A stretch of DNA of 64,000 nt from an uncultured Armatimonadia bacterium (GTDB taxonomy: Bacteria > Armatimonadota > Zipacnadia > Zipacnadales > UBA11051). The stretch covers positions 28,081-92,080 of the forward strand of contig CAYMIN010000013.1 in NCBI GenBank assembly GCA_964390495.1, in the 5' to 3' direction. Below the pieces are notes generated by a model. That model was given only the letters and a program-made list of their open reading frames with translations. It ran no database searches and had not been told where the DNA came from. Positions 2,351 to 60,097 of the stretch are shown piece by piece. Within the stretch, counting starts at the first letter, position 1. Every line of letters starts with the position of its first letter. The position numbers and the translations under genes are program-made.

Positions 2351-5014
2351 GTGGCGCACAAGTTGCTCTTAATAGACGCAAATAGCCTCATTCACCGGGC
2401 CTTCCACGCCCTGCCGCACCTGAGCACCGCCGACGGCCAGGCGACCAATGCCGCCTTCGGTCTCGCCCAGATGCTCCTGGCCCTGCTTGAGGAGCAAGCG
2501 CCCGATGAGGCCGTCATGGTCTTCGACGCTCCCGGCCCAACCTTCCGCCATGAGATGTACGACCAGTACAAGGCGAACCGTCCCGAGATGGACCAGGAGC
2601 TGGCCTCCCAGTTTCCCATCATCCGCCGCCTGGTACAGGCGATGGGCCTGGTAATGCTAGAGCAGGCCGGCTATGAGGCTGATGACCTTATTGGGGCCCT
2701 GGCCGCTCGCGCGCATAACGAAGGTTACGAAACCGTCATAGTCAGCGGCGACCGCGATCTGCTGCAACTGCTTGACGAAGGTGTCCAGGTCCTGATTACC
2801 ACGCGCGGCACCAAACAGGTGACCGCTTACGATGTGGACAAGTTCACCGAGCAATACGGCATAACACCGGCCCAACTGGTTGACCTCAAGGCCCTTGCCG
2901 GCGACACTTCCGACAACATCCCCGGCATTACCGGTATTGGCGACAAGACGGCCTCCGGTCTGCTGGCCGAATACGGCACCGTCGAGGCAGTGCTTGAGCA
3001 CACCGCCGACCTCCCCGAGGCTGTCCGCTCCAAGCTGGCCGGCAACGAACAGGAGGCCTTGTTGTGGAAGCGTCTGGCCTCCATCCAGTGTGACGTGCCG
3101 CTGGAGCAGCAGGCCGACGATTTGGCCTGGCGCGGCCTCGACGGCGAGGCCCTGCGCAAGCTCTTGGCCGAGCTGGAGTTCACCAGCCTGCTGAAGCGCT
3201 TGCCCGCTTCCCAGGCCTCGACCACCGAGGGCACTGTAGCCGCCGCCGATGCTGACAGTCTCGCCGGGATATGCGACCGCGCCGAGCAGGCCGGCGCCCT
3301 TTTTGTTGTGCCGACTGCGCATGGTGATGCCGAGGCCCTGGCGCTTGCTGCCGGCCCGGACCTCGCTGTCAGTCTCCTGCTTCCGTCGGCCTCCGCCGCA
3401 GATACCCAGCAGGCCGGCCTTTTCGCCGACGCAGACCAGGATAGCCCTCTGCCCGAGGCCTTGGTCCAAGTCCTGGGCGATCCGCAGCTAGCCATCAGCG
3501 GCTGCCGGCTTAAGGACCTGGACAATTCACTGCGCCGCCGCGAGGTTGGCGTCCGTAATCTGGCTTTCGACGCCGAGATCGCCTCTTACCTGCTGGCACC
3601 GCAGCGTTCCGACCACGGCATCGGCGTGTGGGCGGCCCAGTATCTCGGCTGGGACCTGCCCGAAACCGACGCCGCCGACGCCTACGGTATGCCCGCCTGG
3701 CAAGCCCGCGGCTGCATCGAGGCTCTGGCTACGGCGCAGTTGCAGGCCCGGCTGCAGCGCGACCTCAAGCAGCAGGGGATGCTGGAGCTGTTCACCGATG
3801 TCGAGATGCCGCTGGTATCGCTCTTGGCCAAGATGGAGCGGGCCGGTATCGGCGTGGACCGCGAGCGCCTGCAGGAGGCCGGTCGCGAGCTTTCCCGAAT
3901 GATGCAGGAGCTGTCCGCGCGCATCTTCGAGCTTGCCGGCGAGGAGTTCAACCTCGACTCCCCCAAGCAAGTCGGCGAGGTCCTATTCGAGCGCCTTGAG
4001 CTGCCCAAGGGCCGCAAAACCAAAACCGGCTGGTCAACCGCAGCTAGCGTCCTTGAGGACCTTGCCCACGAGCACGAAATCGTGGCATTGATCTTGGAGT
4101 ACCGCGAGTATGCCAAGCTGCGCAGTACCTATGTTGACGGCCTGGAGCGCCAGATTGACCCCGCCACCGGCCTGATTCACACCAGCTTCGAACAGACCGT
4201 CACCGCCACCGGCCGGCTCTCCAGCCGCAGCCCTAATCTCCAGAACATCCCCATCCGCACCGAGTGGGGCCGGCAGATCCGCAGTTGCTTCTGCAGCGGT
4301 GTCGCCGGCTACAGTTTCATCTGTGCCGACTATTCCCAGATCGAGTTGCGCATCTTGGCTCACCTCTCCCAGGACCCGACGCTCCTGGAGGCCTTCGCCA
4401 ACCACGAAGATATCCATACCTACACCGCCACTTTGATCTTCGACTGTGGCCGCGACGAGGTGGACTACCGGATGCGCAGTGCGGCCAAGACCGTCAACTA
4501 CGCCGTCTTGTACGGCATGGGTCCCAGGGCTCTGGCTGACGCGCTGGATATGAGTCTTCAGGAGGCCAGGGAGTTTATCGAGAGCTACCATCAACGCCTC
4601 CCGAAGGTCCAGGAGCTCTTGAGCGCCACGCTGGAGCAAGCCCGGCAGACCGGCTATGTGAGCACCATCATGGGGCGCCGCCGACCGGTTCCCGATCTCG
4701 ATGCAGCCAATGCCCGGGCCCGCAGCTATGCCGAACGCGCCGCAACCAATACCCCGATGCAGGGCAGCGCGGCCGATCTAGTCAAACTCGCTATGCTCAA
4801 GCTTGATGCCGCCTTGCAGGCCGATTTCCCCGAGGCCGAGATGCTCCTGCAGGTCCATGACGAGATCGTCTTGCGGGCGCCTGCTGAAAGCGTTCCCGAT
4901 CTGGCCGGCCTCGTCAAGGAGGTGATGGAGAGCGCCTACCCCCTCAGCGTACCGTTGACCGTGGATGTCTCCGTAGGTGACAACTGGCGTGACGTGCAAC
5001 CTTTGCAGGAGTGA
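2351..5014 (+). CDS. polA: DNA polymerase I
   Basis: 887-aa ORF with a GTG start. N-terminal 5'-3' exonuclease/FEN domain (LLLIDANSLIHRAFHAL, GDRDLLQL). C-terminal family A polymerase motifs (DYSQIELRILAHLS, RSAAKTVNYAVLYG, QVHDEIVL). Confidence 0.92.
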   Translation: MAHKLLLIDANSLIHRAFHALPHLSTADGQATNAAFGLAQMLLALLEEQAPDEAVMVFDAPGPTFRHEMYDQYKANRPEMDQELASQFPIIRRLVQAMGLVMLEQAGYEADDLIGALAARAHNEGYETVIVSGDRDLLQLLDEGVQVLITTRGTKQVTAYDVDKFTEQYGITPAQLVDLKALAGDTSDNIPGITGIGDKTASGLLAEYGTVEAVLEHTADLPEAVRSKLAGNEQEALLWKRLASIQCDVPLEQQADDLAWRGLDGEALRKLLAELEFTSLLKRLPASQASTTEGTVAAADADSLAGICDRAEQAGALFVVPTAHGDAEALALAAGPDLAVSLLLPSASAADTQQAGLFADADQDSPLPEALVQVLGDPQLAISGCRLKDLDNSLRRREVGVRNLAFDAEIASYLLAPQRSDHGIGVWAAQYLGWDLPETDAADAYGMPAWQARGCIEALATAQLQARLQRDLKQQGMLELFTDVEMPLVSLLAKMERAGIGVDRERLQEAGRELSRMMQELSARIFELAGEEFNLDSPKQVGEVLFERLELPKGRKTKTGWSTAASVLEDLAHEHEIVALILEYREYAKLRSTYVDGLERQIDPATGLIHTSFEQTVTATGRLSSRSPNLQNIPIRTEWGRQIRSCFCSGVAGYSFICADYSQIELRILAHLSQDPTLLEAFANHEDIHTYTATLIFDCGRDEVDYRMRSAAKTVNYAVLYGMGPRALADALDMSLQEAREFIESYHQRLPKVQELLSATLEQARQTGYVSTIMGRRRPVPDLDAANARARSYAERAATNTPMQGSAADLVKLAMLKLDAALQADFPEAEMLLQVHDEIVLRAPAESVPDLAGLVKEVMESAYPLSVPLTVDVSVGDNWRDVQPLQE

Positions 5015-16469: not shown

Positions 16470-19400
16470 TTGAGGCATCATGGCCGCCCTGCAAAAACTC
16501 GCCTGCGAACTGCCTTCGCAATCGCCCTGGTCGCCCTGCTCTTGGCGGGTGGTGCAGCGACCCAGGCAGCCCCCCAGGTCTCCGACGATCTGGCCGGACC
16601 GCTGCGCGCAGTTGCTGCTGCGGCGGCCTCGGGTCACACCGCGCCGGCCGCTGTCAGCCCCCTGGTGCGTATCCAGGGCGGGTTGGTGCAGGTTGAGATC
16701 ATCTTCCGCACTTCTTTGGCAGCCTTCTCCACCAATCTGGCTGCCTACGGTGGCCGCGTGGAGATTCGCTCAGGCAACCGCGTCCAGGCTTGGCTGCCTG
16801 CCGGCTCCCTCAATGCTGTTGCTGAGTTGCTCGAGGTGGCCCAGATCCGCCTACCGCGCTGCCCGGTGCCGCTCCAGGGCTACGGGGGGGCCTCTTCCGA
16901 GGGCGTCCAACTCACGGCCGCCACTGCCATGCACACCAATAGCATCACCGGCTCCGGCGTCAAGGTGGCGGTCATAGATACGGGCTTTGGCGGCTACGAC
17001 GAAGCGGAGATCCCGGGCGTCGGTGAGGGCTCCGGGCGCACGATATCATTCAGCAGCGGCGGCGGAATGGGTGGCTCGCAGCACGGCACAGCCGTGGCCG
17101 AGGTAGTCGCCGACATGGCTCCCGAGGCCGAGATCTATCTGCTTGCAGTTGACACCAACCTCGCCATCGAGCAGGCTATCAACTACGTGCGCGACAACGC
17201 TTTTGGCGTTGCGGTTATGTCGCTAGGGTCCTTCGATGGCCCCTACGACGGCACTCATTCGGTATCGCAGAAGGTGAATGTCGCGCGGGCCTCGGGCGTT
17301 TTCTGGGTGAATGCCGCCGGTAATCACGCCCAGCGCCACTACGAAGGTGACTGGACCGATCGCAACGGCAATCGCTTCCACGAGTGGGGCTTCGGTCACG
17401 AGGACATGGACCTGAGCCTGTCGCGCGGCACTTTCCAGGCCTTCCTCAGTTGGTATCAAACCGCCGGCGACACCACCAACCACGATTATGACTTGGTGCT
17501 CTTCGACGCCGGCGGCACGGAGGTCACCAGGTCCGCGGTGACCCAGAACGGCGACGACCCGCCGGACGAGGTGCTGGTGGCGTACGTGCCTGAGACGGCG
17601 AACTATTCCCTGCGTATTGAGCGCATGTCACCCGACGTAATCCCTGCCAATGATCGTTTCCAGCTCTTCCTTCCCGATGTTGATGTGGAGAGCATACACC
17701 GAGTACCCGAACATAGTCTGCCGGTTCCCGCCGAAGCCGCCGGTGCCTTCACCGTGGGCGCGACCCGCGGCTCCCTGCGCATTATCGAGGGTGATGCGGT
17801 GCTGCCGATAGATGCAATCGAGCAATACAGCTCCCGCGGCCCCTCACTTAGCGGGCTGCTCAAGCCCGATCTATGCGGACCCGATTACGTCACCACCAGC
17901 CTGGTCGGCACGGCCTATGATCCGTTCGCCGGAACCTCGGCGGCAGCACCGCACGTCGCCGGCGGCGCCGCCTTGCTGCTCTCTGAGGACAGCACCAGGA
18001 CCCCGGCGATGCTCACCACTATCCTGCAGAATCTGGCCGTCAAAGACATGCTGGTAACCGACCCGTCCACCGGCCAGAGGCTACCCGACAACACTTACGG
18101 TTACGGTCGGCTGAGACTGCGGGTCGGCACCGACACTATCCCTCCGGAGATTGGCATCAGCTTCCCGCACAATGGCAGCACCATCACTGACGCCACCCCA
18201 ACGATAGTCGCCACTATTACCGATATCGGCAGCGGCGTGGACCAGTCCACAATCGAAGTCGAACTGGACGGGAACCTGGTCGCGTGGAATTATGTGCCCA
18301 GCAACGGCTTGCTCACATATACGGTCCCGCCTGAGGCCGCGCTCACTCGCAGTCGCCACACCTTGACCATTGATGCGCAGGACTATGACGGCAATGCCGC
18401 CACCACCGCGGTAAGCAATTTCCGCGTCACTGCGCCCTCAATTGACGCCGGGTTGCACCTGATCAGCTTGCCCTACCCGGGTCTGGCCGCTGCCGACCCC
18501 TCAGTGGTATTCGGCATCCCATACGACCAGTTGCAGTTGGCACGCTGGGTACCCAGCGACGCCCGGCCGGTCAAGTACCATATCTACATGGACGAATATG
18601 CCACCTTCGACCCGCCGGATGCCCGCGGCACTAATGCCATAGTCAGCGACCCGCCTGCCGGCCTCGGATATTTCGTGCGCCTGCCCAAACAGTGCACCCT
18701 CAACACCGGCGCCGCCGGCCCCCTGATCGGCATCGACTCGTACCAGATCAAGCTCATCTACGGAACCGATGCCCCACGCGGCTGGAACCTTATCGGTAAC
18801 CCCTATGAGTCGGTGGTTGACTGGGGTACGGTTAGCTTCATTGCCGAGGGCCAGCGCTATGACCTCCGCGAAGCGATGTCTGAAGATGTCGAGCTCACGG
18901 AGGGGGTGCTGTTCGACTTCATCTCCACGGCCACCGGCGGCTATTACAGCTTCTCCTCCGATCCCTCCGCAGATGTCCTCGAGTACATGCGCGGCTACTG
19001 GGTGCATGTCTTGCGCGACGCAACCCTGGAGATGTATAACCCGGCAATCACTGCTAGCGTCGGCGCCAGGCCCGCTCGCGCCAGCTCAGCTAGCGCCCCG
19101 ACCAAGGACCAGTGGACGCTCAAGCTCTCTGCTGTCAGCGGCCAGCACCAGGACCCTGTCAACTATATCGGGGTACGCCCCGAAGCCAGCCAGGGCTACG
19201 ACATCGGTCTCGACATCAGTGAGCCGCCTGCGATCGCCCAGAGCCTGGCGCTTTACATGCCCCAGCCCGATTGGGGCAGCCGTGCCGGACATTATGTGCG
19301 CGATCTGCGCAGCAGCCTGAGTGCCCGCCAGGAGTGGGATGTTGAGGTCGCCTCCGCACTCGCCCAAGCTCCCGTCACCTTGACCTGGAGCGAGCTTAAC

Positions 19401-30320: not shown

Positions 30321-30340
30321 TCACTGTCCGCGATGCACTA

Positions 30341-30502
30341 GTGTCGTGTCCCAGAAACAACTTCACATAATTCGAATAGCTCACCAAACGCGTGCCTCGA
30401 CCTGCCCTGAGCAACGTCGCAGGGCAGCCCGAGTCACCATCGGCAAGCTCCACGCTAAACACATACAATGCGACAGCATTCTCAGCTTCCAGCCCGAGGT
30501 CG
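30341..30502. repeat. ~160-bp intergenic repeat, copy 1 of a direct-repeat pair flanking the ilv operon (contains conserved-structure hairpin 30401-30428)
   Basis: Shares GTGTCGTGTCCCAG, TCACATAA, AATAGCTCAC-AAAC-CGTG-CTCG, a hairpin, and AATGCGACAGCATTCTCAGCTTCCAGCCCGAGGTC with 36817-36941. Confidence 0.6.
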
Positions 30503-30599
30503 TTCGAGCCGAACTCCCCAACTGAGCATCCTCAAGTTGCTCTGACGCCGTATCGAGGCCCTCTAAGAGATAACCATGCTTCTGCGACGCAACACTAGC

Positions 30600-31601
30600 T
30601 CAGTCGTCCCGAATCCACGGCATCATTGCCCGCAGCTCTTTGCCGACCTTCTCGATGAGGTGGTTGGCCGATTTCTCCAGTAACGCGTTGAAGACGGTGC
30701 GGCCGGCCTGGTTCTCGAGGATCCATTCTTTGGCAAACGAGCCGTCCTCCACTTCGCCCAGGATCTTTCTCATCTCCGCCCGCGTCTCGGCGTTGATGAT
30801 CCGTGGCCCACGGCTCAGGTCGCCGTAAGTCGCGGTGTCGGACACTCCGCGCCGCATGCCGATGATGCCCTTGTTATAGACCAGGTCCATAATCAGCTTG
30901 AGTTCGTGGAGCACCTCGAAGTACGCCATTTCGGGCGCATAGCCGCCCTCCACGAGCGTATCGAAAGCCGCCGTAATCAGTTCGGTCACTCCGCCGCACA
31001 GCACGACTTGCTCGCCGAACAGGTCGGTGATTGTTTCCTCGGCGAAGGTGGTCTCGATCAGCCCGGCCTTGGTGCCCTTGATCGCCTTGGCGTAGGCCAG
31101 GCCGTACTGCTTCGCCATTCCGCTGGCGTCCTGATACACCGCCAGCAGGCATGGCACTCCGGTGTCGGACAGATAGCACTCCCGCACCAGCGCGCCCGGG
31201 CCTTTGGGGGCTACCATGAACACATCCACGAACTTCGGCGGCATAATCTGCTTGTAGTGGATGTTGAACCCGTGCGAGAAGATCAGCGCATTGCCCTCGG
31301 CCAGATTCGGCTTGATCAGATTCTTATAGACCGCTGCCTGCACGTGGTCCTGGGTCAGGATCTGGATCAAGTCGGCCTCCTGGGCGGCATCGGCGGCATC
31401 GGTATATACCTCCCAGCCGTCTGCGACCGCCTTCTCGTAGTTGGGCGTCCCCTCCAGTTCCGACACTATCACATCCAGCCCCGAATCGCGCAAGCACATT
31501 GACTGCGCCGAGCCCTGGATGCCGTAGCCGATGATGGCGATCTTCTTGCCATCGAGTACGCCGAGGTCAGCATCATCGTCATAGTAGATGGTAACAGCCA
31601 T
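30600..31601 (-). CDS. ilvC: ketol-acid reductoisomerase
   Basis: [44 protein letters not shown] is the class I KARI Rossmann N-terminus. Length 333 aa. Confidence 0.92.
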
Positions 31602-31621
31602 GCCAGATTCCTCCTTAATGA

Positions 31622-32044
31622 CTAACTGCCAACGCTTTCCGCACTATTCTCTTCCTCTTCAGCCGGTCGCCGTCCTGCACCGCCAATCAGTTTGCCATAC
31701 AGCGCGCCTAACGCAATTCCGACAGCGGCGAAGATGCAGACATTTAGCACGAACACCGACAGCTTGTGCAGTCCCACATATCCTGTTGCCGGGTCATAGC
31801 GCACCATGTAGCGGTAGAGTCGCCACATCACCAGCACGATCGGCCCCAGCATCCCGAACGCCAGGCCGCGGCCCAGGCCCGTCAGCAAGCGCCCTTGCAC
31901 GCCGCCGGCGATGGCCCCGATCAGCAACCCCAGCACCGGCGCAGCGACAGCCAGATAGAGCATTACCGCATCCACCTGGGCCAAATCAACGATCTCTTTC
32001 AATTCCGCGCCCACCTTCCGCCTCCTGCCGCAGCCGTCACTCAA
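31622..32044 (-). CDS. small integral membrane protein, unknown function (3-4 TM), embedded in ilv operon
   Basis: Hydrophobic segments [32 protein letters not shown] and [21 protein letters not shown]. It lies 20 nt upstream of ilvC in the same orientation. Confidence 0.5.
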
Positions 32045-32051
32045 TATATAC

Positions 32052-32768
32052 CTAGTGTCCTGCTCGGCGCAACAGTTCCTCGATATTCACCCCGTCTATC
32101 TTCAGGCCGCGGATGTTGCAGCGCTCGATGGATACATCGGAAAGGTCCGAGTATCTAATGCTGGTACGCCGCAGGTCCGCGTTTTCCATCGTGCTGAATG
32201 AGAAGTCGGTGTTGGAGAAACGCCCCTGGCTGAATTCACAGTGGCTCCAACGCCCGTACTTGGCGGTGAGGTACTCGGCCCGCAGATTCCGCAGCTCGAC
32301 CCGCTCCAGATACCAGTCCGTGCCGCTGCAGCGCAGCAGATGCAGGTCATCGCTCTCGCTGTATTCCCAGATGATATCGTCCATTTCGCAGTCATAGAAC
32401 CGCGTGCCGTCGAAGTCTATCCGCTCGAAGCGGCCGTACTTGAAGCTACCGGTATGGAACGATGGGTAGTCGAAGGTCATCTGGCTGAAGCTGGGCTTGT
32501 GCATCTTTGACTGCGTGAAGCCGACCTCGGAGAAGCTGCAGTTCGTGAACTTTCCGTGCGTGAAGTTGCACCGCTCGAACAGAGCGTCCCGCAGGTTGAG
32601 GTCGCGGAACTCCGGGCTATTCATGGTCAGGTCCAAGAACTCCGGCTCAGTCAGGTCGGTGTCCTCGAAGTGCAGTGGCGCGCCCTCTGCGGTGCCCGGT
32701 CCGGCGCTGACTACAATGCCCATCATCATGACGCCCACGACCCACATGGCCTTCCGCAAAGCTGACAT
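32052..32768 (-). CDS. secreted pentapeptide-repeat protein, embedded in ilv operon
   Basis: Signal peptide MWVVGVMMMGIVVSAGPGTAEG, then tandem A(D/N)LxX pentapeptides (LNLRDALFERCNFTHGKFTNCSFSEVGFTQSK...). Confidence 0.7.
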   Translation of the reverse strand: MSALRKAMWVVGVMMMGIVVSAGPGTAEGAPLHFEDTDLTEPEFLDLTMNSPEFRDLNLRDALFERCNFTHGKFTNCSFSEVGFTQSKMHKPSFSQMTFDYPSFHTGSFKYGRFERIDFDGTRFYDCEMDDIIWEYSESDDLHLLRCSGTDWYLERVELRNLRAEYLTAKYGRWSHCEFSQGRFSNTDFSFSTMENADLRRTSIRYSDLSDVSIERCNIRGLKIDGVNIEELLRRAGH

Positions 32769-32801
32769 GATCTGCCTGCTCCTTTCGCCTCCGGTGACGG
32801 C

Positions 32802-33296
32802 TTAGGTTTTCTGGGAGCCGCGTGCTAGCACCACCTTGCCGGTACGCACCAGCTCGATGATGCCGTAGTCGGCGAAGTTTTCGATGAAAGCATCAATCTT
32901 GTCGGAGTTGCCGACGCACTGCACGATCAGCGCGCCGTTGCCGATGTCAATGATATCGCCCCGGAAGATCTCCACCAGGGCCGCGACTTCGGCTCGTTGG
33001 GACGCCTTCACTTTGACCTTGATCATGCACAACTCCCGCTCCACCACTGCGTGTTCGGTATGGTCTATCACCGTGACCACATCGTGGAGTTTCTCGAGCT
33101 GCTTGCGCACCTGTTCCAGCGGCGTTCCGGAAGCGTCCACGGCGATGGTCATACGTGACACCGCGGCGTCCTCGGTGGTGCTCACCGCCAGGCTCTCGAT
33201 ATTGAAATCGCGCCTGGCGAACAGCCCGGCCACCCGCGCCAGGACCCGCGGACGGTTCTTCACCAGTGCTGACAATGTATGGGTCATATTCGTCAC
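32802..33296 (-). CDS. ilvN: acetolactate synthase small (regulatory) subunit
   Basis: ACT-domain N-terminus HTLSALVKNRPRVLARVAGLFARRDFNIESLAV. Length 164 aa. It lies immediately downstream of the large subunit. Confidence 0.85.
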   Translation of the reverse strand: MTNMTHTLSALVKNRPRVLARVAGLFARRDFNIESLAVSTTEDAAVSRMTIAVDASGTPLEQVRKQLEKLHDVVTVIDHTEHAVVERELCMIKVKVKASQRAEVAALVEIFRGDIIDIGNGALIVQCVGNSDKIDAFIENFADYGIIELVRTGKVVLARGSQKT

Positions 33297-33339
33297 CTTC
33301 CCCAGTGCGAAATCTGGGCTCCCGCTGGACTCCAGCAGG

Positions 33340-35037
33340 TTATTTCTCCTGCTTCGGCTGCTCCATCATAATGTCGTCAACGCTCTTGCCGGCCGGTATG
33401 AACGGGAACACGTTCTCTTCCTTGTTGACCACGAAGTCCATGAACACCGGCTTATCCTTGACCTCCAGGCCCTGCTCCAAGGTCTCGCGGACCTTGTCCG
33501 GCTCGGCGCAGCGCAGGCCTACGCCTCCGTGCGCCTCGGCCATCCGCGCAAAGTCCGGGTTGCCGGTGAGGTCCACGCCCGAGAGCCGGTTGTCGAAGAA
33601 CAGCTCCTGCCACTGCCGCACCATACCCAGGTAGCTGTTGTTGAGAATCACCACCTTGACTGGCAGCTTATTGATGGTGGCGGTGGTCAGCTCCTGTTGG
33701 TTCATCTGGATGCTGCCGTCACCGGCAATGTCAACGACCAGGTCGTCCGGGTTGCCCACCTGCGCACCGATCGCTGCCGGAAAGCCGTAGCCCATAGTGC
33801 CCAGGCCTCCGGAGCTCAAGAACCGGCGCGGCTTCTCCAGTTTGTAGTACTGCGCCGCCCACATCTGATTCTGGCCCACCTCGGTGGCGATTATGGCACT
33901 ACCACCGGTCAGCTCATAGAGCTGCTCGACTATGTACTGGGGGGCGATGCCCTCATCAGGCATCGGGTAGCTTAGCGGGTGGGTGCGTCGCCACTCGAAA
34001 AGCTGCTGTTCCCACGGGCCCTTGTCGCGAGACTTGCAGGCCGCCACCAGTTTCTCCAGAGCAGCTCCGGCATCGGCGCAGATCCCCACCTTGACCGGGC
34101 GCAGCTTAGCAATCTCAGCCGCGTCAATATCAATATGAATCACCTGCGCCCCCGGCGCGAATTTCTCCAGGTCTCCGGTAATGCGGTCATCAAACCGCGC
34201 CCCGATCACGATCATCAGGTCGCTGTTTTGCAGCGCCGTCGAAGCGTAGGCCATCCCGTGCATCCCCGGCATCCCCATCGAGAGCTCGTGGCTTTCCGGA
34301 AAAGCCCCCTTGCCCATCAGCGTATGAATCACGCCGAGATTGCACTTGGTCGCCAACTCGATCAGCTTCTCCGCAGCGCCCGAGGCCACCACTCCGCCAC
34401 CAATCATCAGGATTGGCCGCTTGGCCTCCTCGATCATCTGCGCCGCCTGGCGGATCAGCTCATCATCAACCGGCTGCGGCTCCTCATAACCGTCCAGCCC
34501 CTCGATGTTGCGCTCGGTCCAGGGTACCTCACCGATGCTGACATCAAACGGCACATCCACCAGCACCGGCCCGGGACGCCCTGTCCGCGCCAGGTAGAAC
34601 GCCTCCCGGCAGATGTCCACCAGCTCGGCCGGATTCGTCACCAGGTAGTTATGCTTCGTGACTGGGATGGTGACGCCGGTGGTGTCGGCCTCCTGGAAGG
34701 AGTCCTTGCCGATCAGATTGCGCTTGACCTGGCCGGTGATCGCCACCATCGGCACCGAATCCATGTAGGCGTTGGCCAGGCCGGTGACCAGGTTCAGTGC
34801 CCCCGGACCGCTGGTAGCCATGCACACACCGACCCGGCCGGTCGAGCGCGCGTAGCCGTCGGCGGCGTGAGCCGCCCCCTGCTCGTGACGCGGCAGGATG
34901 TTTCTTATCTGCGAATCGTACAGCGCATCATAGATCGGTATCACAGACCCGCCCGGGTATCCGAAGATCACATCCACACCTTCCTCCGCGAACACCTCAA
35001 GCATGCCCTGAGCACCGTTGATCATCTTCTGACTCAT
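33340..35037 (-). CDS. ilvB: acetolactate synthase large subunit
   Basis: ThDP enzyme blocks (GYPGGSVIPIYDAL, GPGALNLVTGLANAYMDSVPMVAITGQV, the GDGS...N ThDP-binding motif GDGSIQMNQQEL). Length 565 aa. Confidence 0.92.
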   Translation of the reverse strand: MSQKMINGAQGMLEVFAEEGVDVIFGYPGGSVIPIYDALYDSQIRNILPRHEQGAAHAADGYARSTGRVGVCMATSGPGALNLVTGLANAYMDSVPMVAITGQVKRNLIGKDSFQEADTTGVTIPVTKHNYLVTNPAELVDICREAFYLARTGRPGPVLVDVPFDVSIGEVPWTERNIEGLDGYEEPQPVDDELIRQAAQMIEEAKRPILMIGGGVVASGAAEKLIELATKCNLGVIHTLMGKGAFPESHELSMGMPGMHGMAYASTALQNSDLMIVIGARFDDRITGDLEKFAPGAQVIHIDIDAAEIAKLRPVKVGICADAGAALEKLVAACKSRDKGPWEQQLFEWRRTHPLSYPMPDEGIAPQYIVEQLYELTGGSAIIATEVGQNQMWAAQYYKLEKPRRFLSSGGLGTMGYGFPAAIGAQVGNPDDLVVDIAGDGSIQMNQQELTTATINKLPVKVVILNNSYLGMVRQWQELFFDNRLSGVDLTGNPDFARMAEAHGGVGLRCAEPDKVRETLEQGLEVKDKPVFMDFVVNKEENVFPFIPAGKSVDDIMMEQPKQEK

Positions 35038-35098
35038 GGTACTACCTCCTTCGAACCGCCGGACTTCACCATACGGCTGTCGAAGCCCTCGGCTAGGC

Positions 35099-36802
35099 TC
35101 ATTTCATCACTGCCCCGGAAGCCGCCGACTGCACAGAGCGTGCATAGCGCGCCAGCCAGCCGGTTGTGATCTTCGGCTCCGGTGCTTGCCAGGTCTCGCG
35201 ACGCTTGGCCAGCTCTGCCTCATCCACCAGCAGTTCCAGGCTCCGGGCATCCAGGTCAATGGCTATCTCATCGCCGTCTTGGACCAGCGCCAGCGCACCA
35301 CCGGCCGCAGCCTCCGGCGAGATATGCCCGACGCAGGGCCCGCGCGTGCCGCCGGAAAAGCGCCCATCGGTGAGCAGGCCGACCGATTCCTCCTTGCCCA
35401 TGCCCGTCAGCGTCGCCGTCGGGTTGAGCATCTCCCGCATCCCCGGGCCGCCTCGCGGGCCCTCGTAGCGGATGATCGCCCAGGAGCCGTCGGGAATGGC
35501 GTCGGCCATGATCGCCTCCAGCGCCTCCTCCTCCGAATCGAAGCACACTGCCGTCCCCCGGAACTGGCGCATCTTCTCCGACACTGCCGACTGCTTGACG
35601 ACCGCACCGTCCGGGCATAGGTTGCCACGCAGGACGGCGATACCACCCTCTTTCCGATACGCGCTATCCAGCGAGCGGATCACATCGCTGTCGGTCACAC
35701 GGCCCTCGCCGGCGATCTCGGCGACCGTCTTGCCTGAGACCGTGATATTGTCATCCAGCAGCTCGGCCAGCACCGCGAAGGCCCCGGCTATACCTCCGGC
35801 CCAGTCGAAGTCCTCCATCATATAGTCGCCGCCCGGGCGCAGGTGAGCTATCTGCGGCGTCTGCTTGGATAGCTCGTCAAACACCTCCAGGTTTATGTCC
35901 ACACCGGCCTCGTAAGCGATGGCTGCGATGTGCAGGCACGAGTTGGTCGAGCCGCCTAGGCTCATATCCATGCGGATGGCGTTCCTGATGGCGGCCTCGT
36001 TGATGATCTGCCGCGCGTTGATCTGCTCCGCCACCAGCCGGCAGGCAGCCACACCCGTATCGTAGGCCAGCCGCTCCTTCTTGGCCATGCCGGCCAGCGC
36101 CGTTCCACAGCCCACCAGGCTCATGCCCATCGCCTCAGTCACGCACGCCATCGTGTTGGCCGTGTACAGGCCCTGACATGAGCCGACGCCCGGACAGGCC
36201 TCGATTTCCAGAGCGTGCAGTTCCGCCTCCGTGATTACGCCGCGCTCGGCCTTACTGAAGGCCTCGAAGGTATCCCGCACCAGCGACAGCGGCTTGCCGG
36301 CCAGTCGCCCCGAGTGCATCGGCCCGGCGGTGATGGCGATGGCCGGTATATCCAGCCGCCCCGCCGCCATCAGCATTCCCGGAGTGATCTTGTCGCAGTT
36401 GGTCAGCAAGACTAGGCCGTCGAAGCCGTGCGCGATCGCCATGCTCTCCACGGTATCGGCGATCAGTTCCCGGCTGGGCAGGCTGTAGAACATGCCCGCA
36501 TGGCCCATCGCCACACCGTCACAGATGGCAGGAATACCGAAGCTCATCGGCGTTCCGCCACCGGCGGCGATACCCAGCTCGACGCCGCGCAACAGCCGCT
36601 GCATCCCCACATGCCCTGGCACGATGTCGCTGTAGCTATTGGCGATGCCGATGAAGGGCTTATCCGCAAGCTGTTGGGGCGTGAAGCCGCAGGCGTGCAG
36701 CAAGGCCCGCGCCGGTGCCCGGCTGATGCCTTGTACGACTGGTCCGCTACGCTTTTTCATCTTCCTGCCTCCGTTCGTCATTTCACTGCGCGGCTGACTC
36801 AC
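35099..36802 (-). CDS. ilvD: dihydroxy-acid dehydratase
   Basis: ILVD_EDD signatures ([43 protein letters not shown]). The true start may be an internal Met (MKKRSG, about 36760). Confidence 0.9.
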
Positions 36803-36816
36803 TATACTACACCCAA

Positions 36817-36941
36817 GTGTCGTGTCCCAGGCATAACCTCACATAACCCCAATAGCTCACTAAACCCGTGGCTCGGCCTGACCTGCGTCTCGTGCAGGTC
36901 AGGTGAGAATGCGACAGCATTCTCAGCTTCCAGCCCGAGGT
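36817..36941. repeat. copy 2 of ilv-flanking direct repeat (hairpin 36876-36902 with compensatory substitutions relative to copy 1)
   Basis: See 30341-30502. It lies between the ilvD start and the stop of the DUF1028 gene. Confidence 0.6.
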
Positions 36942-36951
36942 CTTCCGCGAC

Positions 36952-37668
36952 TTACCACTCCCGCATGGCCTTGAGCATATCGAATATGCGGCGTAGTTCC
37001 GCGATAGGGTCTTGGTGGTCATCCACTCGCAGGTCCACTACCCGGTCGGTAAGCCCGGCGGTGCCGCCGCCCTGACGGACGACTAGCAGAGCCGCCGATT
37101 GCTGCCCTCTGGTGTCACCGCCGGCGGCCTGGCCTGCTTCCAGGGCCTGCATCAGCCGCTCGCCCAGTACCTGTCCCGCTGCGGCCTGGAAGCTTGCGGC
37201 CATAGCCTCAACTACTTGCGGCCCGGCCAAGATGTTGCCCTGGGCCGAGAAATCCTCCCCGCAGACGCCTCCGGCCCATTGGGTACATTCGCCGCCGGTA
37301 TGATTCGCCGTGCGGCTCTGGTGGTCAATGATTCCCACCTGGCGCAGTTCGGGCCTCTCATCTGCCGCCAATATCTGCTCCAGGGCCTCTTGCGGCGGCA
37401 CTCTCGTGCCCAGCAAGCGCAGGGCTTCCGGCCCCAATTCGGGATTCACCGCTGCCTGGGTCGCCACCGCTCCGACTCCGGCCGCAGCCCAGGGCACGAC
37501 GCTGCCGACCGCGAAGTACTTGGACTGCACGGCCACTCCCAAGTCGCGGGTCTCGCCGTCACGTGCTACTATCGAGAAGGTTCCGGTAGGCGCCATCTCC
37601 ATGCCAGGGGCCTCGCCCATGAAGCGGATAGGATACTCGTTGGGTACAAAAAAGCCTCGTGTCCACAA
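36952..37668 (-). CDS. DUF1028-family protein (Ntn-hydrolase-like)
   Basis: GTFSIVARDGETRDLGVAVQSKYFAVGSVVPWAAAGVGAVATQA is the characteristic DUF1028 N-terminus, with Thr as the putative nucleophile after processing. The start may be MEMAPTG. Confidence 0.65.
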   Translation of the reverse strand: MWTRGFFVPNEYPIRFMGEAPGMEMAPTGTFSIVARDGETRDLGVAVQSKYFAVGSVVPWAAAGVGAVATQAAVNPELGPEALRLLGTRVPPQEALEQILAADERPELRQVGIIDHQSRTANHTGGECTQWAGGVCGEDFSAQGNILAGPQVVEAMAASFQAAAGQVLGERLMQALEAGQAAGGDTRGQQSAALLVVRQGGGTAGLTDRVVDLRVDDHQDPIAELRRIFDMLKAMREW

Positions 37669-38039
37669 TGGGACAAGAGGCTTGTTAGCTCCTGCGGTAC
37701 CACCCAGATTCCCGGCGCACGCTTGAGTTGCACCGGACTCTTTGGCGCAATAACGGGCGCACCCGGTCGGGCCTATTGCTATATGTTCGGCCCGACGGCT
37801 CGGGGGCGACCTTCGGCGGTCCGCTGGTACCGTCTCTCAGCACGACGACGGCTCTCTGTTCCTGGCGGAGTCCGCTTACTCCTCCCCTTCTTCGCCGTAA
37901 GCAGTATTCAGATTGTCTCCAGTATAGTACACCGCCTCAGATTCGTCAAGCGCCCCTTGCTTCGAGCCGCATTATTGCCCAACGCACCGGCGGGGTTTTG
38001 TTGAGCAGTCACGCAAATCTTCGGCGACTGGAGCTCCAG

Positions 38040-43982: not shown

Positions 43983-44867
43983 ATGAAGAATCCGAAGCCC
44001 GGCTGCCGCTTTGTAGTCTTTGCCGACGTGCATTATGTGGTTCCGCCCCATCCGCGGCTGTCATGGCCGCAATTGGTCGAGAAGCTCCCTGAGCAGCCGC
44101 GCGTGACCGAGCTGATTGACACGATGCTGCCGATGGCTCTGGAGCAGGTCCATGCCGAGTTGCGGCCTGACTTCATTGTCTATGCGGGCGACCAGGTCAA
44201 CGTCGGCTGGGACGAGGAGGGCCTCGCCAACCAGCACGGCTTCCGCAACCTACTGGCCGAGGCTAGCTCTGCATCTTTCCCTCAATCCCGTGGGTCGGGG
44301 TTCCAGCCCGACAGTGATGAAGTGCCTGTCTATCTGGTCTATGGCAACCACGACCGCCCTCGCGAGCGCTATCTGGAGTTCTATGGCGAGACTATCTACA
44401 GCTTCACCTGCAACGGCTGCCATTTCGCCGTGCTCGACAGCGGCGTCATGCACCCGGAGGACGACTACGACCCTCCGGAAATCTTCACGACCGGGCTGGA
44501 CGAATTGCAGAACATGCTCGATCGAGCCGCCGGAGCGCCGGCAGCGGTCCTGCTGCATTTCTACATCTACCCGACCGACATAGTGGGCTACAGCTATCCG
44601 GCCGCGGCGGAGGCCATCGCGATGATCGAGAGCTATTCCCGCCCCGTACCGGTGCTCAACGGCCATTTGCACGATGGCCGTGTGGACATCGCCAACGGCC
44701 AGCTCTATTTCACTGCCCGCTCCTTCATCGAGTCGCCATTCTGCTTCTACCTGCACGAGTTGAGCGAAGACAGCCTGCAGATTGACGAATATATGCTCGA
44801 TTTCAACACCGGCAGATGGTCGCGATATCGCATGTGTGCTTTCGATCTCAGTCCGGCTTCGGCGTAG
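43983..44867 (+). CDS. calcineurin-like metallophosphoesterase, carrying an in-frame REP-like insertion
   Basis: FVVFADVHYV, YAGDQVN, VYGNHDRPRE, LLHFYIYP and NGHLHDG are the metallophosphatase motifs. Start at the ATG 43983; the ORF track's 43842 start overlaps the upstream gene. Confidence 0.75.
   Translation: MKNPKPGCRFVVFADVHYVVPPHPRLSWPQLVEKLPEQPRVTELIDTMLPMALEQVHAELRPDFIVYAGDQVNVGWDEEGLANQHGFRNLLAEASSASFPQSRGSGFQPDSDEVPVYLVYGNHDRPRERYLEFYGETIYSFTCNGCHFAVLDSGVMHPEDDYDPPEIFTTGLDELQNMLDRAAGAPAAVLLHFYIYPTDIVGYSYPAAAEAIAMIESYSRPVPVLNGHLHDGRVDIANGQLYFTARSFIESPFCFYLHELSEDSLQIDEYMLDFNTGRWSRYRMCAFDLSPASA
44268..44315. repeat. REP-family element (AATCCCGTGGGTCGGGGTTCCAGCCCGACAG) inserted in-frame inside metallophosphoesterase CDS
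   Basis: Near-identical to the intergenic copies at 45063-45098 and 46165-46198. It encodes the extra peptide SFPQSRGSGFQPDS between conserved blocks. Confidence 0.5.
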
Positions 44868-44929: not shown

Positions 44930-45170
44930 GCTGCGAAGCAGTGGATGAAAACGCTTCGCAAGGCGAAGCGTTGAGGGCTGGCCCAGCCGTTATCCTTAAG
45001 TCTTCTGGAGGGGCCGCATACGAGGCGGAAGCCCTAGCTTCCGCCGAGAATCCAGCCCAGCCGTTATCTCGCGTGGGTCGGGCTTTCCAGCCCGACAGCC
45101 GTTGCTGCTTTGCCTTTGCCCTTTCTCCCTTTGGGAAAGGGGGCGGGGGTGAGGGGGCCGTTGCCTCAGG
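44930..45170. repeat. composite repeat copy B (REP hairpin 45077-45096 + CCCTTTCTCCCTTTGGGAAAGGGGG + CGGGGGTGAGGGGG)
   Basis: It fills the gap downstream of the metallophosphoesterase gene. An artefactual ORF (44908..) reads through it. Confidence 0.5.
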
Positions 45171-46029: not shown

Positions 46030-46232
46030 CCTGTCGTGTCTCGCTCAAAGACATGCCCGTAGCTCCGGCTTTCTTCGTCCACCTATCCCTCTTTGGATTC
46101 CCCCTTCCCTACCAGGCAAGGGGGTTAGGGGGTTAGGCGCCTTTGGCGTTGCCGTGCCCTTGCCAAGAATCCCGGGGGGCGGGCTTCCAGCCCGACGCCA
46201 TTGCCCTCGTAGGGGCGTCAGCCTGCCCAGCC
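46030..46232. repeat. composite repeat copy C between convergent genes (TGTCGTGTC, CCCTTCCC...GGGGGTTAGGGGGTTAGG, REP hairpin 46174-46198)
   Basis: Same modules as copies A, B and D but in a different order. It ends at the rel stop codon. Confidence 0.5.
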
Positions 46233-53074: not shown

Positions 53075-53147
53075 GCCCCAGGTAACGACCTCGGGCAGGA
53101 TGCCCGAGCTGCGCAGTTCCAGTGGATCATTCGGGCTGATTCCATAA

Positions 53148-59841: not shown

Positions 59842-60097
59842 ACGAGTTGTACTCCCACGGTCGGTGATGCTAGGTTGGGTTGTCCATTGCTAACAGCGCG
59901 AGATGATGGGGCCGAATGCCGCCAGCACCCTCGGGCTGCAAGCCCGAGACACACGCCGGTGGGCTTTGCGTGGAGGCTGTCAACTGCGCAGGCGAAACAT
60001 CAGGTCACGTGGCCGGGTTAGGCCGCGCATGCCGCCAACCTATCGCGGCTGAGCACGCCTGAGCTGCTAGCCGGTGACTGGGTGCCGTCGGCTCGGA

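Follow-up and report, generated by a model that had tools for sequence, protein, structure and literature searches.

REP-like repeats and IS630-type MITEs around the ilv operon of an uncultured Armatimonadia bacterium

Bacterial MITEs that derive from insertion sequences of the IS630/Tc1-mariner type include the Correia elements of Neisseria and the Nezha family of cyanobacteria. Another kind of small repeat is the GTAG-tagged REP, and mobilisation of these REPs and of their mosaic clusters (BIMEs) has been attributed to RAYT/TnpA-REP (Di Nocera 2013, PMC3733652; Nunvar 2010, PMC2817692). Degenerate tags, GTGG among them, have been accepted in REPs, and some REPs are described as having complex loops in which as much as 27 bp is paired internally (PMC3733652). 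Here we analyzed a 64-kb stretch of DNA from an uncultured Armatimonadia bacterium (the window) in which two repeats enclose an ilv operon. The original prediction offered two readings of them, either a pair of ilv leader and terminator RNAs or the footprint of a recombination or mobilisation event that brought in the ilv block. Our analysis indicates that the repeats are, with high probability, not a matched pair linked to ilv but members of one abundant family of small mobile repeats that were acquired separately.

Two unlike repeats at the ends of the ilv block

Both repeats were found on the + strand in one orientation, as had been claimed, so that, read as written, they are antisense to the ilv operon, which is encoded on the - strand. 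They share an identical 35-nt block (AATGCGACAGCATTCTCAGCTTCCAGCCCGAGGTC; 30467-30501 and 36908-36942), for which there are two matches in the window against 0.00 expected (100 shuffles), and their first 70 nt are 83% identical (30340-30409 versus 36816-36885). The hairpin reads CTGCCCTG...CAGGGCAG in copy 1 and CCTGACCTGC...GCAGGTCAGG in copy 2, so that the two are set apart by a single C-G to A-T double change, which bears out the compensatory change proposed earlier. Copy 2 is nearer to copies in foreign genomes (92% to L028, 90% to L002) than to copy 1 (about 80-83%), and the two copies are unlike in architecture and age.

Copy 1 lies between the stop codons of uvrC (30320) and ilvC (30600-30602) and is made up as follows:

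30338-30598, + strand: copy 1 as a whole, a complete but decayed IS630-type MITE running from CTAG to CTAG, identified by full-length homology to other elements
30338-30358, + strand: left end, CTAG and the 5' terminal inverted repeat TGTCGTGTCCCAGAAAC, identified by alignment with the IS630-family ends of L051 and L050 and with other MITE ends
30372-30433, + strand: REP-like module with the 5' arm TCGAATAGCTCACCAAACGC, a degenerate tag GTGC, CTCGA, hairpin P2 (30401-30427) and CCCGAG
30434-30466, + strand: 33-nt insert TCACCATCGGCAAGCTCCACGCTAAACACATAC in place of the left arm of P3, absent from copy 2
30467-30501, + strand: the 35-nt block, comprising the right arm of P3, the junction AGCTTCCAGC and the 3' strand of P1, an exact match to copy 2
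30502-30598, + strand: 3' arm and degenerate 3' inverted repeat, with no counterpart in copy 2

The extent first given for this copy (30341-30502) does hold the repeat but falls short of its length, as homology with family members spans 30338-30598 and stops one base before the ilvC stop codon; as a miniature transposon it measures 257 bp. Full-length homologues of 224-229 bp with unrelated flanks are present at four other loci (L022, L002, L020 and L025). The REP-like module, in which P2 is the variable hairpin, scored 40.4 bits against covariance model R1. The left arm of the second hairpin (P3) has been lost, and the 80-nt stretch that contains the insert has a 100% identical counterpart in L016, a locus from a Ca. 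Zipacnadia genome bin. The 3' inverted repeat (GCGACGCAACACTAG, 30584-30598) differs from GGGACACGACACTAG at 3 of 15 positions.

Copy 2 lies in the DUF1028-ilvD spacer:

36814-36942, + strand: copy 2 as a whole, a 5' inverted repeat and an intact core, antisense to the operon
36868-36942, + strand: core, a three-way junction, identified by covariation counts on two family alignments
36868-36871, + strand: tag GTGG
36872-36876 and 36935-36939, + strand: the paired strands of P1, CTCGG and CCGAG
36877-36903, + strand: P2
36905-36924, + strand: P3, GAGAATGC-GACA-GCATTCTC
36925-36934, + strand: junction strand AGCTTCCAGC

Copy 2 scored 109 bits against model R1. Its 5' inverted repeat (CAAGTGTCGTGTCCCAGG, 36814-36831) shows CAAG where CTAG is expected, and it has neither a 3' arm nor a 3' inverted repeat, family homology ending at 36942, which is 9 nt from the DUF1028 stop codon (just past the stop in the operon sense). 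Translation of ilvD most likely starts at an ATG (36760) that has GGAGG ahead of it, and copy 2 therefore ends ~55 nt upstream of ilvD. With an inverted repeat at its 5' end only, where an IS630-family MITE has one at both ends, copy 2 is a half-element or hybrid and not a MITE, and for want of the 3' repeat it cannot transpose as one.

A folded core and its REP-like family

Alignment of 34 members showed that the family core is a three-way junction of ~75 nt, in which two extra hairpins sit within the loop of a REP-type hairpin. Across alignments of 27-34 copies 98% of the paired cells were indeed paired and double changes were seen in 13 of 25 pairs, a level of covariation reached by none of 500 shuffled controls, while slid controls gave pairing of only 23-44%. 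The proposal that the hairpin is under selection for pairing, made originally from two copies, is thus supported with many more. The second hairpin covaries freely, and the invariant features are the 10-nt junction AGCTTCCAGC and the P3 base GAGAA/TTCTC; the junction has 0, 1 and 10 unpaired nucleotides. On one strand G-T mismatches exceed A-C mismatches by 14 to 3, which suggests that the folded strand is the one antisense to the ilv operon. Folding of single sequences on both strands (z of -1.5 to -3.9) did not decide the strand. By eye, we dropped readings of the core as an integron attC site or as a hammerhead-type structure because the consensus motifs do not fit.

The family to which the core belongs is REP-like and carries a GT[AG]G tag. 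A 20-mer from the 35-nt block was found as an exact match at 26 loci with unrelated flanks in four Armatimonadota or unclassified genome bins, and a search with model R1 returned 34 strong complex copies together with many simple ones. The simple members outnumber the complex ones, lack two of the three helices and follow the pattern GT[AG]G-GTCGGGC-TTCCA-GCCCGAC. Dozens of further copies in Armatimonadota genome bins are every one intergenic or in frame, and four copies are present in the 14 kb of L032. The window holds at least nine (2 complex and 7 simple), any copy number per genome being an extrapolation from these 64 kb and from fragmentary bins, and the hairpin motif occurs in it at 6 sites, where chance alone would give 0.48 matches. 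The simple members of the window are:

22742-22797, + strand: tag and 7-bp GC-rich hairpin with a TTCCG loop
40419-40474, + strand: ACGCGTGG-CTCGGGC-TTCCA-GCCCCAG, with co-directional genes on either side (27.5 bits to R1)
44267-44323, + strand: member inside the metallophosphatase gene (43983-44867), in frame
45051-45107, + strand: CGCGTGG-GTCGGGC-TTTCCA-GCCCGAC
46152-46207, + strand: member with convergent genes on either side
53079-53136, - strand: member with the 5' arm GCCCGAATGATCCAC and the tail GGTCGTT
59919-59973, - strand: a further simple member

The in-frame member amounts to a 15-aa insertion relative to the metallophosphatase ortholog of L033. Family copies lie between co-directional genes in 34 cases (20 sense, 14 antisense) and between convergent genes in 5, with none between divergent genes, and this placement matches the gene-context pattern of REPs, in which divergent spacers are avoided (PMC3733652). 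The tag is GT[AG]G in the simple members, GTGG in copy 2 (GTGG-CTCGG...CCGAG) and the degenerate GTGC in copy 1; only the simple members have the form of a 20-40 bp simple palindrome, which copies 1 and 2 do not. It had been foreseen that the repeats might prove to be two of many REP-type copies with no positional specificity, and this is essentially what we found.

A HUH transposase of the RAYT type would be the obvious candidate for the enzyme that spreads the simple forms and those with the core alone. A tblastn search with an approximate E. coli RAYT query over about 0.3 Mb of relevant genomes gave nothing below E = 0.1, and the ORF behind a weak match in L009 is an M48 peptidase. We also considered as a RAYT candidate the ORF at 44250-44756 on the - strand, which is flanked by REP-like hairpins. 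It matched nothing in Pfam, and the real gene is the + strand metallophosphatase that reads through the hairpin.

A structure this well conserved might instead mark a multi-copy non-coding RNA gene or ribozyme-like module with its own function, its mobility as DNA being secondary. The covariation of the three-way junction and the excess of G-T mismatches would suit such an RNA, as would the invariant junction and P3 base, which recur in copies found without the 20-mer as bait. However, the copies carry no conserved accompanying promoter or terminator, their orientation to neighbour genes is mixed (20:14), the simple forms that lack two helices are the more numerous, and one copy is translated in frame. 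The 0/1/10 junction layout is also unlike the hammerhead core. Rfam searches of both copies with E up to 10 returned no match save a meaningless mir-33 at E = 4.5, and at the gathering threshold the whole window gave a T-box and one tRNA only; a literature text search for the hairpin sequence yielded irrelevant matches only. An RNA gene with its own function is on this evidence highly unlikely.

IS630-family ends and the MITEs that share them

Full-length MITE copies of 224-261 bp start with CTAGTGTCGTGTCCC and finish with GGGACACGACACTAG, and 5 of them have CTAG at both ends. The 18-nt MITE end is present in at least 120 metagenome stretches. Inverted pairs of these ends fall into two size classes, one of 62-365 bp (38 pairs) and one of 1149-1218 bp. 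The 1149-bp element of L051, which splits an RtcB gene at a single CTAG, encodes a 362-aa protein that matches NCBIfam NF033545, the IS630 family transposase (263 bits, cut-off 100), and also Pfam DDE_3. The IS and the MITEs can be aligned at their ends, and the MITE end shares CTAGTGTCGTGTCCC[A/T]GA with the 1149-bp elements of L051 and L050. Whether TA or CTAG is the duplicated target cannot be told from these sites because CTAG is palindromic. Copy 1 conforms to this picture in its IS630-matching terminal repeats, the target site at both ends, its small size without a transposase and its several full-length relatives. Among the metagenome loci with these inverted repeats only 1 of 80 carries the core, and none of the loci examined holds an autonomous element with ends of the CCGAATAATTCAC type.

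The ilv operon, its relatives and the origin of the repeats

The operon has a leader of its own:

37666-37949, - strand: promoter-like TTGACG-17-TATACT and T-box leader, outside the repeat family

The T-box (37901-37666) matches Rfam RF00230 with 112.4 bits against a gathering score of 93. It lies upstream of the DUF1028 gene, 0.8 kb further upstream than the repeat, and is the actual leader of the DUF1028-ilvDBN-pentapeptide-ORF-ilvC operon. Copy 2 is located inside this operon, downstream of T-box and DUF1028, and so does not bound the transcription unit. A terminator scan of either strand of both copies found no terminator-like site, that is, no GC hairpin followed by a U-tract.

Comparison with two relatives, L032 and L033, shows how the repeats are distributed around an unchanging locus. 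In both, gene order is identical to that of the window, pentapeptide and small-ORF genes and outer neighbours included. The ilvC-uvrC spacer of L032 is empty, with 22 nt that read gcgCTGGCTCA where the window reads gcaCTAG[element]CTAGCTCA. CTAG is known as an IS630 target, in line with the empty sites seen here. The DUF1028-ilvD spacer of L032 holds an orthologous core with the same right-hand boundary and without the inverted-repeat arm. L033 has a DUF1028-ilvD spacer of 43 nt with no element and, downstream of ilvC, an independent core that is oriented the other way.

These observations bear on both of the options offered originally. That the copies form an ilv-specific pair of regulatory RNAs, a leader before ilvD and a terminator after ilvC, was suggested by their position next to these genes and by the conserved hairpin. 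The T-box and its promoter already serve as leader from upstream of DUF1028, neither copy ends in a U-run and neither has an Rfam match. Moreover, copy 1 is missing in L032 and copy 2 in L033, where an ilv leader should have been kept upstream, and family copies stand beside dozens of unrelated genes, so that the repeats are not an ilv-specific control element; we judge this option extremely improbable. As to a mobilisation footprint, the repeats do derive from mobile DNA and do stand in direct orientation at both ends of the block. The further notion that they are att-like or composite-transposon remnants from the delivery of the 6.5-kb ilv block, with its pentapeptide and small-ORF genes, deserves hardly any credence at all, since block and flanks are syntenic in L032 and L033 with or without the repeats and the two copies differ from one another in architecture and age, copy 2 being nearer to those of other genomes.

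The preferred explanation, separate acquisition, can be outlined as follows. Copy 1 would be a non-autonomous MITE that a DDE transposase of the IS630 family brought to a CTAG site, with uvrC and ilvC converging on it from either side, and that has since undergone decay of its 3' inverted repeat and its interior. Copy 2 would go back to an older event in which the hairpin core entered the spacer between DUF1028 and ilvD, and in the window it also bears the MITE 5' arm. The shared core consists of a tag, GT[AG]G, and a hairpin rich in GC (CTCGG...GCTTCCAGC...CCGAG) whose loop has two extra hairpins inserted in it, which gives the three-way junction. Covariation would then reflect family-wide selection to keep the hairpins, probably because what is recognised for spread, or tolerated by the host, is a folded single strand of DNA or RNA that has the sense of the window + strand. 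That the copies flank ilv would be due only to the build-up of such elements in spacers at gene ends.

Any effect of the repeats on ilv expression is something we infer. It is compatible with separate acquisition that copy 2 arrived as a mobile repeat and may now modulate the operon, which we regard as unlikely. The hairpins in the DUF1028-ilvD spacer could stabilise the upstream mRNA or give a processing or partial-pause site, as has been described for some REPs within operons; in operon sense copy 2 has a predicted RNA fold of -60.2 kcal/mol (z = -3.2). Alternatively, the inverted repeat could supply the -35-like hexamer of a hybrid promoter into ilvD, since the - strand has a weak promoter-like GGGACA-16-TATAGT at 36828-36801, the first hexamer of which falls within the copy 2 inverted repeat. 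Between window and L032 the stems and 3' block of the core are nearly identical while fourfold-degenerate sites are 61% identical, and the 16-nt block CTGACTCACTATACTA is kept in both lineages. Such conservation could reflect a local function rather than neutral retention, but gene conversion among the many family copies would yield the same result. L033 runs the same operon with its short spacer, L032 without the inverted repeat has no convincing -35, and the lack of a terminator-like site and a folded strand that appears to be antisense to the operon also speak against modulation.

A more far-reaching version is speculative and distinctly improbable. Here the core would be a functional folded single strand recognised by a dedicated enzyme or host factor, which as cargo of IS630-type MITEs gained a second, DDE-transposase route between species and was co-opted at the DUF1028-ilvD site to tune the T-box operon. 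Such spread as MITE cargo would account for the 100% identity of 80-nt stretches between different Armatimonadota genomes.

Separate acquisition removes a false lead, namely a dedicated regulatory RNA pair around the ilv operon or delivery of a cassette, and the results are of use mainly for annotating uncultured Armatimonadota genomes. They add a REP-like family of repeats that had not been catalogued before, including a three-way-junction variant with good support, and an IS630-family element with many MITE derivatives. The two kinds of element form chimeras, enter operon spacers and occasionally lie in frame inside genes. The direct copies could furthermore allow the 6.5-kb ilv block to be deleted or amplified.

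Taken together, we consider the repeats to be ordinary mobile repeats of already known kinds. In common with T-box leaders and ilv leaders or attenuators they are RNA-like structured sequences adjoining branched-chain amino acid genes, but they have no T-box or attenuator features. As in GTAG-tagged REPs, a GT[AG]G tag stands immediately 5' to a GC-rich stem of 7 bp and its short loop, copies are dense and occasionally lie in frame within genes, arrangements are tandem or mosaic, and subfamilies have complementary stem changes and G-T pairs. In contrast to those REPs of 20-40 nt, copies 1 and 2 have a core of ~75 nt with a two-hairpin loop and conserved arms of ~25 nt, and the host phylum, Armatimonadota, lies outside the published survey (PMC3733652). 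The MITEs resemble those of IS630/Tc1-mariner origin in being non-coding, intergenic elements of 224-261 bp that have identical ends to an autonomous element of the IS630 family, and in their insertion at TA within CTAG, with the site at both ends, many copies and unrelated flanks. They differ in that the interior is not a simply deleted IS but a REP-like three-way-junction module that is also free-standing in the same genomes.

Position of the two repeats in the ilv locus

The original prediction placed two direct repeats on either side of an ilv operon. Both repeats are present and point the same way on the + strand. Over the first 70 nt they agree at 83% of positions, and they share a 35-nt block without any difference (2 matches in the window versus 0.00 expected from shuffles). 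The reported hairpin difference, a single C-G to A-T double change, is also as described. Copy 1 has its 3' end at 30598 rather than 30502; the left arm of its second hairpin is gone and a 33-nt insert is present. With the ilv genes encoded on the - strand, the repeats run antisense to the operon in the orientation given.

Features of the locus (window positions)
30338-30598, +: copy 1, between the stops of uvrC and ilvC
31622-32768, -: pentapeptide-repeat gene and the next ORF of 130-140 aa (no Pfam match), between ilvN and ilvC
36790-36806 (L032 4486-4501): 16-nt block CTGACTCACTATACTA between repeat and ilvD ribosome-binding site, identical in both
36814-36942, +: copy 2, with a 5' inverted repeat and a core (a three-way junction of helices P1, P2 and P3 behind a GT[AG]G tag)
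37666-37949, -: sigma-70-like promoter TTGACG-17-TATACT plus T-box leader, at the head of the operon starting with DUF1028
37901-37666, -: T-box leader (Rfam, 112 bits)

The window is part of a metagenome contig of 157 kb. Pfam and Rfam matches give the operon order, 5' to 3', as promoter-like site, T-box, DUF1028 (Ntn-hydrolase-like), copy 2, ilvD, ilvB, ilvN, pentapeptide-repeat gene, 130-140-aa ORF and ilvC. Lying between DUF1028 and ilvD, copy 2 is an internal part of the transcription unit and not one of its borders. Copy 1 sits beyond ilvC, facing the end of uvrC, a + strand gene. The operon leader is the T-box. By eye, its specifier looks like GUC (Val) in GAAG-GUC-G.

Through the DUF1028 protein we found two relatives with the same operon, L032 (75% identity) and L033 (67% identity). 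Both keep the neighbourhood and operon order of the window, the pentapeptide and small-ORF genes included (L032 8569-9712; L033 14693-15858), and on this comparison these two genes are a stable component of the operon and no recent insertion. The ilvC-uvrC spacer of L032 is 22 nt long, with gcgCTGGCTCA in place of the window's gcaCTAG[257 bp]CTCA, which marks copy 1 as an insertion specific to one lineage, at a site resembling CTAG. The DUF1028-ilvD spacer of L033 is 43 nt and is without the element, while the L032 core shares the right-hand boundary of copy 2 but lacks the inverted-repeat arm and differs at the top of P3. Immediately 3' of ilvC, L033 has an independent core of its own (16904-16983, +), in the orientation opposite to copy 1 and cut off by the contig end. 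Given these empty sites and differing relatives, copies 1 and 2 arrived separately, at different times, after the ilv block was in place. Copies from other genomes also resemble copy 2 more closely (90-92%) than copy 1 does, and this argues against local duplication as the origin of the pair.

These observations dispose of both explanations first offered for the repeats. They are not the footprint of an event that delivered the ilv block, as gene order is kept in both relatives and the block predates the copies. Nor do they act as ilv leader or terminator RNAs, since the leader is a T-box, no U-tract was found at copy 2, L033 lacks the copy 2 element and L032 lacks copy 1.

The polycistronic RNA gains ~130 nt of stable hairpins from copy 2 (-60 kcal/mol, z = -3.2); by analogy with REPs (repetitive extragenic palindromes) within operons, copy 2 could alter mRNA stability or processing. 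A promoter-like GGGACA-16-TATAGT takes its -35 from the inverted repeat. The CTGACTCACTATACTA block is absent in L033, itself without the repeat. This block includes TATAGT, a -10-like hexamer in the operon sense. Between the window and L032, conservation of the core at the copy 2 site far exceeds that of fourfold-degenerate sites (61%), a difference that local constraint would explain, as would gene conversion among copies. Because the L033 operon has no element, we consider a local function of copy 2 unlikely. The ilv block could also be deleted or amplified through the two direct copies.

A dispersed family with a covarying core

Thirty loci in a collection of species-representative genomes contain an exact match to a 20-mer of the shared block. 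True family copies account for 26, with mutually unrelated flanks, spread over two Ca. Zipacnadia bins, one Armatimonadia bin and one unclassified bin. The other four, in other phyla, were set aside as chance matches. The family shares a core of the form ACGCGT[AG]G-CTCGG-[CCTG-variable hairpin-CAGG]-T-[GAGAATGC-NNCA-GCATTCTC]-AGCTTCCAGC-CCGAG-GTCGTT. Copies 1 and 2 are thus two among many members of a repeat family that is REP-like and MITE-like (MITE, miniature inverted-repeat element).

Selection on the hairpin structure had been proposed from one double change, and the larger family bears this out. The three-helix junction is 98% paired both in 27 hand-aligned copies and in 34 copies aligned by a covariance model, with double changes at 13 of 25 pairs; none of 500 shuffles reached any measure, and pairing falls to 23-44% when partner columns are slid. 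P1 alternates between CTCGG/CCGAG and CGCGG/CCGCG, and P2 exists in at least five mutually complementary versions. P3 varies at its top among copies detected without the 20-mer bait; the GAGAA/TTCTC base of P3 is invariant, and so is the 10-nt junction strand. The excess of G-T over A-C mismatches on the strand shown (14 versus 3, p = 0.013, the copies not being independent) suggests folding of this strand rather than its complement.

Within copy 1, 80 nt at 30422-30501, the 33-nt insert included, are 100% identical to about 5742-5821 of L016, a locus in Ca. Zipacnadia bin Meg22_1012_Bin_300. Orthologous genes of the closest relative are only about 83% identical in DNA, and the comparison hints at recent exchange or strong homogenisation of that variant.

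IS630-type ends of copy 1

Full-length relatives of copy 1 (L002, L020, L022 and L025) measure 224-229 bp, start with CTAGTGTCGTGTCCC and finish with GGGACACGACACTAG, and homology stops exactly at these ends. Searching metagenomes with the 18-nt end gave at least 120 stretches, the inverted pairs falling into two size classes, 62-365 bp and 1149-1218 bp. The longer class includes a complete element.

L051 751-1899: complete IS630-family insertion sequence, 1149 bp, splitting a gene for the RNA ligase RtcB at a single CTAG

Its 362-aa product scores 263 bits against the NCBIfam model for IS630 family transposase (cut-off 100) and has Pfam DDE_3 and HTH domains, and alignment between its ends and those of the MITEs continues past the inverted repeat. 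The transposase reading frame ends in the terminal CTAG, whose TAG serves as stop codon. IS630/Tc1-mariner elements duplicate a TA target, and IS630 prefers CTAG. Copy 1 is an IS630-type MITE, which has probably lost its mobility because its 3' repeat carries 3 mismatches in 15 positions.

Only 1 of 80 metagenome loci bearing IS630-type ends contains the core, and the MITE-plus-core chimera is therefore specific to this lineage. The same core occurs in a second CTAG-flanked element of ~250 bp (L004, L006, L014 and L026; e.g. L014 2700-2990), spanning CTAG-CCGAATAATTCAC... to ...TCATGAATAATACAGG-CTAG; its termini show weak inverted symmetry, and no autonomous partner for it was found among the loci examined. 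These genomes thus contain a mosaic of repeat modules.

The REP-like module

The covariance model also detects short forms of ~56 nt, consisting of an arm (CCGAATAATTCAC-like), ACGCGT[AG]G and the 7-bp hairpin GTCGGGC-TTCCA-GCCCGAC. Seven lie in the window and many in other loci (e.g. 7 in the 8-kb L018); the short hairpin motif has 6 window sites against 0.48 matches expected by chance. The complex core is the short-form hairpin into which P2 and P3 have been inserted, 5' within the loop. By a crude tally, copies in co-directional spacers number 20 sense and 14 antisense, with 5 in convergent spacers and 0 in divergent ones. One simple hairpin lies in frame within a gene.

44267-44323, +: insert in a metallophosphatase gene (43983-44867), lengthening the protein by 15 aa directly ahead of the GNHD motif

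These 15 aa are missing from the L033 ortholog (2565-3392, -), which is otherwise 59% identical.

The core is a REP-like module; a tblastn search of about 0.3 Mb from the relevant genomes with an E. coli RAYT (the candidate transposase for REPs) gave no hit below E = 0.1. Novelty here stops at the repeat family, which is new and comes from an uncultured phylum, and at its chimeric build. L011 1-80 holds 24-nt hairpin units (CTTTCCAGCCCCGCGTGGCACGGG) in tandem arrays, and L008 3970-4220 holds partial cores in tandem; both resemble the mosaic REP clusters known as BIMEs. Published GTAG-tagged REPs show degenerate GTRG/GTGG tags, complementary stem variants, G-T pairs, complex loops and intragenic copies, and prefer spacers between unidirectional and convergent genes, in a survey whose phyla did not include Armatimonadota (PMC3733652). 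The family described here matches them in tags, stem variants, G-T pairs, loops, an in-frame copy and spacer preference.
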